Shown one piece after another: positions 14,847 to 32,988 of a stretch of 34,046 bases of DNA; position 1 is the stretch's first letter, and the number at the start of each line of letters is the position of its first letter. Origin of the DNA: a virus. Its lineage: Duplodnaviria; Caudoviricetes. Below the pieces are notes generated by a model, which saw nothing but the letters and a program-made list of their open reading frames with translations, searched no databases and was not told the origin of the DNA. The stretch spans positions 1-34,046 of the IMG/VR virus record IMGVR_UViG_3300043416_000072; one strand, given 5' to 3'. The position numbers were made by a program, and so were the translations under genes.

Positions 14847-15071
14847 ATGTTAACAATCTGGCAAAAGAAACCCGTGGGCCAAATGGCTCGATTGAAGCAC
14901 CTGCTGGCCCTCAAAGAAGGCACTACAGCGGCTGAGATTGCACGGTACTTACCAACTACATCACCGCACAGCAAGATGGCTCGTTTGATTCGCCAAAGTA
15001 TGTGGACAATCGTTAAGAAAGACAACGGCAACGGAACCAAACAATATTTTGGAACTCCTCCAAAGAAGTGA
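14847..15071 (+). CDS. Small winged-HTH-like protein
   Basis: SD AAGGAG then ATG 14847; GTTAAEIARYL...HSKMARL pattern. Confidence 0.6.
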   Translation: MLTIWQKKPVGQMARLKHLLALKEGTTAAEIARYLPTTSPHSKMARLIRQSMWTIVKKDNGNGTKQYFGTPPKK

Positions 15072-15077
15072 TATAGT
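15069..15077 (+). promoter_or_regulatory. Extended -10 promoter TG-A-TATAGT
   Basis: TGnTATAGT places +1 near 15084, at the base of the leader hairpin. Confidence 0.55.
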
Positions 15078-15084
15078 TTAGTCA

Positions 15085-15186
15085 GACGGTTTAGGTGTGG
15101 CGTGTACGAGACGCTGATACATCTAAGCCGTCACAGGCTGACCCCTGAATTTTGGCGCTCGTACCGCTGGAGTTCAGGGGTTTTTT
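15085..15186 (+). ncRNA. Two-hairpin leader RNA with complementary (kissing) loops upstream of the replication initiator
   Basis: Hairpin 1 at 15085-15132 with loop GTACGAG; hairpin 2 at 15141-15181 with loop CTCGTAC; several G-U pairs fix the strand as +. Confidence 0.75.
15141..15186 (+). terminator. Intrinsic terminator/attenuator before the replication gene
   Basis: 17-bp stem ACCCCTGAATTTTGGCG/CGCTGGAGTTCAGGGGT with a T run at 15181-15186. Confidence 0.7.
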
Positions 15187-15199
15187 ATTGGAGATTTGA

Positions 15200-16027
15200 A
15201 TGGCTCGAATCAGGACAGTTAAGCCTGAGCTGTTTCGTCATGAAACACTTTATGAGGCTGAGATAAAAACTGGATTGCCTTTGCGTCTTGCATACATTGG
15301 CTTGTTTACGGCCTGCGACAGGGAGGGGCGTTTTAAGTGGAAGCCAAGAGCATTGAAGTTAGATGTTCTTCCATACGATCAAGTTGACTTTTCACGCGTG
15401 CTTGACGCGTTAGTCACGCATGGGTTTATCATCAAGTACGAGTTTCAAGGCGATAAATTTGGTTGTATTCCAACTTGGGCGCAGCATCAAGTTATAAATA
15501 ACCGTGAATCCACCTCTTTGCTGCCTTCTCTTGATGAATCAACAACTTGCACGTGTGACACACGCGTGGATGACGCGTTGACCACGCCACTTGTGCATAC
15601 TCAAGTGGAAGGGAAGGGAAGGGAAGGGAAAAGGAAAGGGAATAAGGAAAGCGCGATTGTGACGCGACCTGAGTTTGTTAATGAGCAAATTTGGAATGAT
15701 TGGCTTGTAATCAGGAAGAAGAAAGATGCGCCATTAACTCAAACCGCTTGGGAGCTATTTACAAACCAAGTCAATAAAGCTGGCTGGACTCTTGAGGATG
15801 CAATTAAAGAGTGCTGTTTGCGTACATGGGCCAGTTTTAAGGCCGATTGGGTAGCGCCCAAACAATCCTTTGCCCAGCAAGCTGCTGACGTTGCCCGAAC
15901 AACAGTCCCCGCCCAGAACACTGGCCCTGACCCTGTGCTTATCAAGATTGAGCAAGACCGCCAAAAAGCAGCGCCTATGCCTGACCACATTCGCCAACAA
16001 ATTAAATCTGTATTGAGAAAAGTATGA
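15200..16027 (+). CDS. Phage replication initiator (lambda O-like replisome organiser)
   Basis: MARIRTVKPELF start, CDREGRF, internal repeat region, C-terminal WNDWLVIRKKK...W..FKADW. Confidence 0.85.
   Translation: MARIRTVKPELFRHETLYEAEIKTGLPLRLAYIGLFTACDREGRFKWKPRALKLDVLPYDQVDFSRVLDALVTHGFIIKYEFQGDKFGCIPTWAQHQVINNRESTSLLPSLDESTTCTCDTRVDDALTTPLVHTQVEGKGREGKRKGNKESAIVTRPEFVNEQIWNDWLVIRKKKDAPLTQTAWELFTNQVNKAGWTLEDAIKECCLRTWASFKADWVAPKQSFAQQAADVARTTVPAQNTGPDPVLIKIEQDRQKAAPMPDHIRQQIKSVLRKV
15393..15650. repeat. Putative replication origin: 11-bp-periodic ACGCGT-type iterons plus a purine tract of GGGAA repeats
   Basis: Octamers at 15393, 15404, 15415 and 15550, 15561, 15572, 15583; (GGGAA)4 at 15611-15630. 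Confidence 0.7.
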
Positions 16028-18989: not shown

Positions 18990-19342
18990 TGTTTTACGGA
19001 CAATGCAACGATTGTGGACAACGATGGGAGTTTGGCACAGCCAGCACCTGCACTTGTAAGGAAGAAGAAATGACACCAAACACAATCCAATTTCACAGCG
19101 GAACGCCAGCAACAGAAGTTTTGCGCTTGTCTAAAGATGGCATATGGGCCAACCCTGACATTCCTGCTGATGACGCAGCCAAGCTGGTTTTGTCGGCTAT
19201 TGGCGACAACATTGAGATACTGGTGCAGAAGGCTGTGCTTGCCGAAAGAGAGGCGTGTGCAAAGGTGTGTGAGGACACTCCGTGGTCAAACTGGTTTACT
19301 GCTGACTGCGCCGCCGCCATCCGAGCAAGGGAGAACACATGA
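18989..19342 (+). CDS. Modular hypothetical protein (N-terminal CxxC...CxC; C-terminal EREACAKVC...AAAIRAR)
   Basis: TAATG coupling and SD GGAG. Confidence 0.65.
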   Translation: MFYGQCNDCGQRWEFGTASTCTCKEEEMTPNTIQFHSGTPATEVLRLSKDGIWANPDIPADDAAKLVLSAIGDNIEILVQKAVLAEREACAKVCEDTPWSNWFTADCAAAIRARENT

Positions 19343-19893
19343 AAGACGAAGCATATTTCACTTACGCTCATTTAAAGAAAAGTGATGGCAATATTTTTTA
19401 TATTGGAAAAGGTAAGCAAGGAAGGGCTTTTAGCAAGGCTAACCGAAATAATTATTGGCATAACACGGTTGCAAAACATGGATTGGAAATAAATATTCTT
19501 GCCGCATGGAAGTCAGAGCAAGAGGCGTTTGAGCATGAAAAATTTTTGATTTGGTGCTTCAAGGACATGGGGTTTGGTTTAGTAAATATGACTGATGGCG
19601 GTGAAGGATTGTCAAACCCTTCAGAAGAAACAAGATCAAAAATGTCTCAAAACAATGCTATGAAACGCCCGGAGATTGCCGCAAAAATATCTTCCGCAAG
19701 AAAAGGCAAGCCGTTATCGGATGAACATTGTTTAAAGTTATCAAAAGTTCAATCTGGAAGAAAACTGTCTGATGCAACAAAACAAAAAATGCGCGATAGA
19801 TTTTTAACTGGAATTTCAGAAGAAACAAAACAAAAAATGTCGGATTCTTCCAAAAAAGCATGGGCAAAACGCAAGGAGAAAAATAATGGATAA
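19339..19893 (+). CDS. GIY-YIG-like homing endonuclease with NUMOD3 repeats
   Basis: YFTYAH...IFYIGKG...RA, NMTDGGEG, repeated SEET[RK]xKMS; AT-rich relative to its flanks. Confidence 0.85.
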   Translation: MKDEAYFTYAHLKKSDGNIFYIGKGKQGRAFSKANRNNYWHNTVAKHGLEINILAAWKSEQEAFEHEKFLIWCFKDMGFGLVNMTDGGEGLSNPSEETRSKMSQNNAMKRPEIAAKISSARKGKPLSDEHCLKLSKVQSGRKLSDATKQKMRDRFLTGISEETKQKMSDSSKKAWAKRKEKNNG

Positions 19894-31585: not shown

Positions 31586-32176
31586 ATGTGTGTTGTTGAA
31601 AACTGCAATGAGAAAGTACATGGACACGGGATGTGTCGGCATCACTATAACTCTTGGAAAACGCATGGCGATCCGCTTGCATCAAAAGAGCATTACGGGC
31701 CATTGTTAGAAAGATTTTTTAGGTATGCGAAAAAAGGCGTATCTGAAGATGATTGCTGGGAATGGACTGCCGCAAAAAATCCTCAAGGCTATGGGAAAAT
31801 AAGTATCGGTGCGCCAAGCCACAAGGTTGAGGGAGCGCATAGGGTTTCATGGATACTTCATAACAACTTAGAAATCCCTGCTGGATTGTTTGTTCTTCAT
31901 TCTTGCGACAACCCAGAATGCACAAACCCAAAGCATTTACGAGTTGGCACAAAGGCTGACAACATGAAAGATATGTACTCCAGAGCAAGGCAAGGCAAGC
32001 GCAATTTGCCAATTGGCGAAAAGAACAAAAAAGCAGTCTTGACAGTTGAAAAGGTTTTGCAGATTCGCTCAAGCACAAAGACAAATGGTCAATTGGCTGA
32101 AGAAATGGGAATTTCCAAGACTTGTGTAAGACTTGCAAGAATTGGCGAAACATGGTCTCATGTTCCATTTCTTTGA
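31586..32176 (+). CDS. HNH homing endonuclease
   Basis: CWEW...GYG...AHRVSW...VLHSCDNPECTNPKHLRVGT..DNMKD. Confidence 0.92.
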   Translation: MCVVENCNEKVHGHGMCRHHYNSWKTHGDPLASKEHYGPLLERFFRYAKKGVSEDDCWEWTAAKNPQGYGKISIGAPSHKVEGAHRVSWILHNNLEIPAGLFVLHSCDNPECTNPKHLRVGTKADNMKDMYSRARQGKRNLPIGEKNKKAVLTVEKVLQIRSSTKTNGQLAEEMGISKTCVRLARIGETWSHVPFL

Positions 32177-32197
32177 TAACTATCGTAAAATACAACT

Positions 32198-32509
32198 ATG
32201 GAAAACCCTACGTTTCGTAAATCTGTTGCTCACGCTGATGGTGATGGTGGCTTGGTCATTCACACTGCCCAGGATGTTTCTGCCATCATTGAGCGCAATA
32301 AAAAAGAATTCAACAGCTATGACGAACGGGCCAAGTGGTCTGATGAGATTTATGGCAACAAAGTAGCGTCAATTCCTTTGACCGCTATTGATGAGCTAAA
32401 CCATAAAGGCATCATGCGTGGCTTCCATGTTCTTGATAACGCTCGATTTGCAATGTGGTTAAACGATGCAAATAACAGGGCGTGGCGAACACGTCCGGGA
32501 AAAATCTAA
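32198..32509 (+). CDS. Conserved post-capsid hypothetical protein
   Basis: QDVSAIIERNK...KVASIP...WLND..NRAWRT motifs. Confidence 0.75.
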   Translation: MENPTFRKSVAHADGDGGLVIHTAQDVSAIIERNKKEFNSYDERAKWSDEIYGNKVASIPLTAIDELNHKGIMRGFHVLDNARFAMWLNDANNRAWRTRPGKI

Positions 32510-32988
32510 TGGCACGTCCAGCAATTCCATTTGACGTTTTGTATGAGCGATATGCTGTGCCAATCCCTTTTTGCGGGTGCAGGATTTGGACTGGAAGTCT
32601 TACAAAGCATGGGTATGGAAAGCTAACAGAAGGCAAGAAAAAAACAATAAGTGCGCATAAAAAAACATATGAGCATTTTGTCGCCAAAGTTCCTGATGGC
32701 ATGGTTGTAATGCACGAATGTGATATGCCTTCTTGCGTCAATCCAAACCATCTTAGGGTTGGAAGCACATTAGATAATGTGCAAGACAAAGTTAAAAAGA
32801 ACAGGCAAGCCAAAGGTGTTTCTCACGGAAGGTCTAAACTTTCTAACGAGCAAGTGCGCAGGGCAAAATTTGGCGGAGAAAACTTGAAAAATCTTGCTGT
32901 TGAGTTTGGTTGCTCTAAAATTGCTTTGAACCAAATAAGAAGCGGTCGATATTGGAAGCACATCACACAAGATGCGGGAGTGATCTAA
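32509..32988 (+). CDS. HNH homing endonuclease (second)
   Basis: GCRIWTG...GYG...AHK...VMHECDMPSCVNPNHLRVGS..DNVQD; TAATG-coupled start 32509. Confidence 0.9.
   Translation: MARPAIPFDVLYERYAVPIPFCGCRIWTGSLTKHGYGKLTEGKKKTISAHKKTYEHFVAKVPDGMVVMHECDMPSCVNPNHLRVGSTLDNVQDKVKKNRQAKGVSHGRSKLSNEQVRRAKFGGENLKNLAVEFGCSKIALNQIRSGRYWKHITQDAGVI

Follow-up and report, generated by a model that had tools for sequence, protein, structure and literature searches.

How does a phage that has a lambdoid replication module and lacks a CI repressor limit the expression of its replication initiator? The question is raised by the DNA upstream of the initiator gene in IMG/VR record IMGVR_UViG_3300043416_000072, a complete 34,046-bp phage with direct terminal repeats (the whole record is called the window here) whose genes include those for virion proteins, ERF, NinB and an O-like initiator. 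An RNA element in front of the initiator gene has a 5'-terminal hairpin whose loop is exactly complementary to the loop of an intrinsic terminator, which would allow the two loops to kiss. The architecture of this element, its covarying kiss, the position of its promoter and its gene context are observed directly. The reading preferred here, held tentatively and at slightly less than an even chance, is that the kiss antiterminates in cis, that accumulated terminated RNA competes in trans, and that the loops are specificity alleles.

All parts named in the original prediction (an extended -10, two hairpins, a linker, a U tract, a Shine-Dalgarno (SD) sequence and an ATG) are present, all on the + strand. 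A sigma-70 promoter is predicted at 15049..15077, with -35 TTGGAA at 15049-54 and extended -10 TG-A-TATAGT at 15069-77; the TGA of the latter doubles as the stop codon of the upstream open reading frame (ORF) 14847-15071. The first hairpin, P1 (15085..15132), begins at the predicted +1 and is supported by folding and covariation. It comprises a 14-bp lower stem (15085-98/15119-32), a bulge of 3 nucleotides (nt; 15116-18), a 5-bp top stem (15099-103/15111-15) and loop 1, GUACGAG (15104..15110), identified as a kissing partner by complementarity scans and covariation. The intrinsic terminator, P3 (15141..15189), has a hairpin at 15141-15181 with a 17-bp stem, a U tract at 15182-89 and loop 2, CUCGUAC (15158..15164), the exact reverse complement of loop 1, as had been claimed. 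A further conserved hairpin, absent from the original prediction, is P2 (15126..15139), an alternative 4-bp stem AGCC/GGCU that is mutually exclusive with the base of P1. The SD GGAG (15190..15193) precedes the initiator gene (15200..16027, ATG at 15200), which encodes 275 amino acids and matches phrog_16167 (E 3.6e-42) and the O-like phrog_678. The terminated product is predicted to be an RNA of ~105 nt.

Is this an RNA element, and on which strand? The fold has a minimum free energy of -57.3 kcal/mol (z -6.72), and 0/200 shuffles were equally stable. The chance of two fixed 7-mers being complementary is 6e-5. The count of seven G-U pairs (1+2+4), from which selection on the + strand RNA had been proposed, was confirmed, and the antisense strand folds ~21 kcal/mol worse (-33.9 vs -54.8). 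No promoter-like site and no terminator were called on the minus strand near the element by sequence-based calling. Since promoter-like matches across the 6 kb region are no more frequent than in shuffled sequence (6 vs 6.4), the promoter call rests on conservation: the position of the -10 tracks the start of P1 across members, in agreement with the proposal that the element has its own promoter. The element is thus a real + strand RNA element. An alternative, that the kiss promotes termination or that the sequence acts as DNA (a cruciform or a single-strand origin), draws on the adjacency of a replication gene and on the fact that the direction of the effect is argued from analogy. It is very improbable: the G-U pairs, the weaker opposite strand, the promoter that tracks P1 and the U tract all indicate RNA, and the published precedent is antitermination.

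The loops remain complementary across a family of phages. In the pattern scans the loop letters were left free, so that complementarity was not imposed; the scan sets overlap and include near-identical phages. With four loop positions free, complementarity was complete in 45/50 viral loci, which had 13 types of loop, and the remaining 5 had no hairpins. A pattern that fixed only the linker and left all seven positions free gave 121 loci, mostly chance matches; the energy filter left 31 distinct rows, 3 of them non-members, and 28/28 distinct members were complementary, with 10 loop types, all of the form G-NNNN-AG / CU-NNNN-C. Among 79 matches in metagenome contigs, all 40 that bore hairpins were complementary; those without hairpins had 0-2 of 4 positions paired, with one exception that looks real. 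A detector run over all loci counted 18 types of seven-base loop among 107 distinct rows. The family collected amounts to about 100 distinct members. The element is widespread among the environmental phage contigs scanned.

Covariation, the check that had been proposed for the loops, bears the kiss out. In an alignment of 45 rows, which had been selected for complementarity, the kiss was 100% Watson-Crick, four positions covaried and double changes occurred in 32/38 pairs. Covariation also supports P1, at 12/14 lower-stem and 5/5 top-stem pairs. Complementarity extends to six-base loops in a second copy found with a covariance model that did not encode the kiss. This copy (L794 ~990-1100, G308), with the loop pair GUGGAG/CUCCAC, heads an operon that includes antirepressor and methylase genes. 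Rows judged to be on the wrong strand were dropped, 9 from the P2 analysis and 4 from the tree, linker, truncation and neighbour-protein analyses; one of them, L371+, resembles a real member on inspection.

The promoter and P1 define two classes of members. In 50/104 rows a -10-like box ends 26-28 nt upstream of loop 1 (long P1), and in 27/104 it ends 9-15 nt upstream (short P1). A TAnnTTTG box, which we take to be a Bacteroidetes promoter, stands 9 nt before the loop in 12 rows. Long-P1 members have P2 as a competitor of the P1 base, and in short-P1 members it is free-standing and often GNRA-capped; in the MAFFT alignment 91% of its cells were paired and its covariation was weak. Raw linkers of 7-39 nt shrink to medians of 12 nt (long P1) and 15 nt (short P1) when the middle hairpin P2 is folded, compared with a stack of ~31 nt. 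Real elements made up 1/100 pattern matches at loop spacings <44 nt vs 49/88 at 44-67 nt. The sole member with short spacing is L453 (37 nt, tether ~7-11 nt depending on the start site), which nature offers as a test case for the tether model.

How could such an element control the gene behind it? The loops would kiss during RNA synthesis, the base of the terminator would be kept from closing, and the polymerase would read into the initiator gene. With so short a tether, kiss and full terminator would be mutually exclusive, as suggested by the precedent of the guanidine-IV riboswitch and by a rough geometric model; P2 and the long lower stem of P1 would both keep it short. The original prediction had the terminator opened by strand exchange extending from the kiss. 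This pairing can be drawn in the window and was rejected because it is not conserved in the family, where its flanks are 65% and 76% paired vs 99-100% for the top stems and the kiss. No antiterminator helix appeared in a truncation series. In trans, released terminated RNA would compete for loop 1, so that termination would be restored as the RNA accumulates. In the weakest step of the scheme, the input would be the ~105-nt terminated RNA that the element itself yields; in long-P1 members the loops of this RNA are predicted to be unpaired. Initiator or nuclease would then be made in a burst soon after the phage DNA enters, followed by shut-off, in phages without a CI repressor, and the loop sequences would act as specificity groups.

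Evidence that speaks to the loops as specificity alleles comes from their turnover. On a tree of 64 rows, built on ~140 nt and from a set enriched for one loop through the search procedure, kiss positions 2, 3 and 5 changed 20, 13 and 19 times, compared with 3-13 changes at the 5' partner of each top-stem pair and 17-28 at spacer sites that do not pair. Between the members L728 and L750, whose scaffolds are 99.3% identical, the loops show four concerted changes (p 4e-4); one further base differs, and the two share lineage-specific sequence between the loops. L178 and L697 likewise show four concerted changes on a scaffold 97.1% identical (p 4e-3). No mismatched loop intermediates were seen in the complementarity scans. 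Such fast turnover is the pattern that would be expected of specificity alleles, by analogy with plasmid incompatibility (PMC10724649), and it favours a trans competitor. It would also lend indirect support to the copy-number or multiplicity sensor acting in trans that the original prediction proposed. Several common loops contain 4-base palindromes (GTAC, TCGA, CTAG), which makes restriction-site avoidance a possible driver of the swaps.

A simpler possibility is that the attenuator works in cis only: the leak would be constant, or would vary with polymerase speed, Mg2+ or temperature, and would set the dose of the initiator and nuclease genes without any trans-acting RNA. The evidence from covariation, spacing and the tether all concerns the cis contact, and the guanidine-IV precedent is itself in cis. 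The concerted four-base swaps on near-identical scaffolds are left unexplained by this possibility unless recombination or restriction-site avoidance drives them, and we regard it as unlikely, though worth serious attention. A more elaborate form of the trans reading appears doubtful, although somewhat easier to credit than that. Here the element would be a one-strand, protein-free counter, with a leader whose kiss with its own terminator loop antiterminates, a terminated product as trans inhibitor and ~19 rapidly swapped loop alleles as orthogonal groups, by which phages without a repressor could time their replication, detect co-infecting relatives and control several operons separately.

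Several points weigh against a cis kiss with a trans competitor, beside the short and loop-biased basis of the tree. A 7-bp kiss is much weaker than the terminator, which wins at equilibrium, so any effect on read-through must be kinetic. A planar geometric model is crude. It agrees with the tether argument for the two folds favoured in the window (long P1, or P1 shortened with P2 formed), where the kiss permits 9-15 of the 17 terminator pairs in 11/12 bend settings; against the argument, the one extreme setting fits all or nearly all 17 even for long P1. A fully single-stranded tether (short P1, or frayed P1 without P2) permits 16-17/17 pairs at near-full stretch. That fold costs ~16 kcal/mol in the window and is the default in short-P1 members, and it therefore counts against a uniform strain model. 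Two copies were found in 6/50 records (five independent phages), always with different loops, and the difference in 5/5 two-copy genomes is not significant (p 0.34). Terminated RNAs could pair mutually and neutralise themselves. Contigs from RNA runs have a depth of ~3, are possibly DNA and are uninformative on expression or termination. The closest homologues of the window's initiator (L002-L007) lack the element.

Could the kiss instead answer to a ligand or a protein? It might be stabilised as part of a riboswitch for a host-state signal, or clamped by a Rop/Rom-like protein, and would then antiterminate. Rom binds kissing complexes irrespective of sequence. The platform is the same as that of guanidine-IV, and the loop ends carry invariant bases (G, A, G and C, U, C). 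These form three Watson-Crick pairs and the closing pairs vary, so that there is no obvious ligand pocket; the downstream genes are not metabolic either. No small protein was common to the element neighbourhoods, the largest clusters being initiator fragments (29/100 loci) and ERF (18/100). A stabilised kiss is accordingly quite unlikely, and a dedicated partner protein encoded near the element was rejected, as none was found there.

Which genes does the element serve? In nearly all cases that have downstream sequence, members adjoin an SD and an ORF. Of the 76 first downstream ORFs, 60 were distinct, and their classification with the PHROGs library gave 17 initiator or primosomal proteins, 19 endonucleases, 6 other DNA-acting proteins (a methylase, a helicase-methylase, a primase, an antirepressor, a transposase and a possible resolvase), 6 of unknown family and 12 unmatched; DNA-acting proteins are thus 42/60. 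Initiators are 11/25 of the ORFs further downstream. A co-oriented ORF ends <=130 nt upstream in 73/83 members, and the terminator therefore gates the operon, including transcription from upstream. These data bear on a further alternative, in which the product is a stable terminated small RNA, compact or loop-oligomerised in the manner of pRNA, with a separate role, and the downstream genes live on ordinary leak. The element's own promoter and strong terminator would suit such a product, as would loops that are predicted to be free in long-P1 members and a kiss that fits the full terminator at near-full stretch in short-P1 members. The nearly constant position directly before an SD and ORF, the DNA-acting first genes and the gating of the operon make it quite improbable.

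The preferred reading, of a cis kiss answered by a trans competitor, also draws on phage lifestyle. Among 18 near-complete genomes, selected among members on record length, a tyrosine integrase, a resolvase or an S24 (CI-type) repressor was found in 0/18. At L400:289-2302 (minus strand) an element with an endonuclease gene divides an RNA ligase gene precisely, into phrog_968 positions 5-226 and 227-394, without an intron match, and looks like a mobile cassette; a group I intron around this insertion was rejected, as Rfam gave no match. In the window two adjacent HNH genes follow the major head gene (31586-32988) and a further homing endonuclease lies at 19339-19893, none of them preceded by an element.

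Is the element tied to the initiator? The original prediction presented it as a replication-initiator attenuator and proposed to examine regions upstream of homologous initiators. The loops do co-vary across the family, and the element usually heads a replication operon. Specificity for the initiator did not hold, given the endonucleases among the first genes and the element-free homologues. Of 33 homologue loci only two (L001, L029) had the element within 3 kb, in L001 1.1 kb upstream with loops GGUCAAG/CUUGACC, and it occurred in 0/5 whole records of close homologues; a tight link to the window's initiator family was rejected. In L002-L007 the same promoter-to-SD slot, after a similar promoter, holds an RNA resembling int-alpA RNA (RF02996), at 27-28.5 bits in three loci, below the gathering cut-off of 35.8 (~2528-2636 in L002-L005, ~2544-2650 in L006, ~162-254 in L007). 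The slot thus takes interchangeable RNA leaders. In this int-alpA-like RNA, pairing of the second loop with a stretch further downstream, close to the SD, is accompanied by compensatory changes. In another genome a bona fide int-alpA RNA match (L795:6981-7047) lies between two copies of the kissing element.

Has the element been seen before? The Rfam search, a check that the original prediction had proposed, returned no characterised family: the window had no match at the gathering score and no meaningful match at E up to 10, and the element was unmatched in 20 loci of diverged members. A pattern scan of GTDB was too loose, with 0 real members among 120 of ~7800 matches. Model R1 found none in 151 + 151 bacterial genomes, where 25 candidates were scored per genome, so absence is not established. 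BLAST of annotated phages found one uncultured phage only. No description of the element was found in the literature, and unread supplements of PMC5737381 and larger files of PMC10690425 could list it; the readable supplementary tables held no motif match.

Several known systems resemble the element in part. The CI RNA of phage P4 has similar counterparts in C4 of phage P1 and CA of N15. P4 CI RNA and IsrK of Gifsy-1 are leader-derived RNAs that act in trans on transcripts of their own promoter and gate replication or antirepressor genes (PMC4825925), and by analogy with them the terminated RNA may act as trans competitor here. These RNAs are processed or pair as longer antisense, belong to temperate phages and, in IsrK, activate. 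The present element, in contrast, would rely on a single 7-bp kiss onto a terminator loop, occurs in phages that lack integrase and CI, and gives no Rfam C4 or IsrK match.

In the pT181 attenuator and in IncI/IncB rep control, loop-loop recognition also controls an initiator and the loop sets incompatibility (PMC3753616; PMC10724649); in IncI an intramolecular pseudoknot and an antisense RNA compete for one loop. The pT181, CopA and Inc regulators are countertranscripts from the opposite strand, so one mutation alters both sides of the pairing. In the present element the two partners share a strand and paired mutations are needed, with no reverse promoter called at the element. Unlike in the plasmid antisense attenuators, the kiss is not extended into a longer duplex, as flank pairing is not conserved, and the truncation series shows no antiterminator helix.

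The closest known mechanism is the guanidine-IV riboswitch (GGAM-1/mepA; variant Gd4v, PMC9788692). Its P1 loop pairs with the terminator loop across a linker too short for kiss and full terminator together (10.1101/2020.10.21.349134), the kiss declines as the terminator stem grows longer (PMC11611296), and its switching of termination is ON (PMC7736828). The claim of an undescribed mechanism was therefore overstated, since antitermination through a kiss onto the terminator loop is already known from guanidine-IV riboswitches. The phage element probably works like their expression platform: a 5' hairpin loop pairs with an intrinsic-terminator loop, with covariation in the family, and no antiterminator strand overlaps. 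For the linker the crude model is divided: it predicts one too short for kiss plus full terminator in long-P1 members, and makes the two compatible at near-full stretch in short-P1 members. It fails the pocket and gene-context tests of the riboswitch. Entire 7-nt loops pair with the central four positions free to vary, no unpaired bases are conserved (in comparison with the published description), sugE/mepA/GNAT-type genes are 0/60 first genes, the context being phage replication and nuclease genes, and the promoter lies directly at P1 with an alternative P2. If the preferred reading is true, it would show how phages with a lambdoid replication module and no CI repressor limit initiator and nuclease expression. 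The family would provide naturally occurring attenuators of ~100 nt whose 7-nt keys are interchangeable, and the tether-strain mechanism of guanidine-IV would be extended to a ligand-free, possibly RNA-triggered switch.
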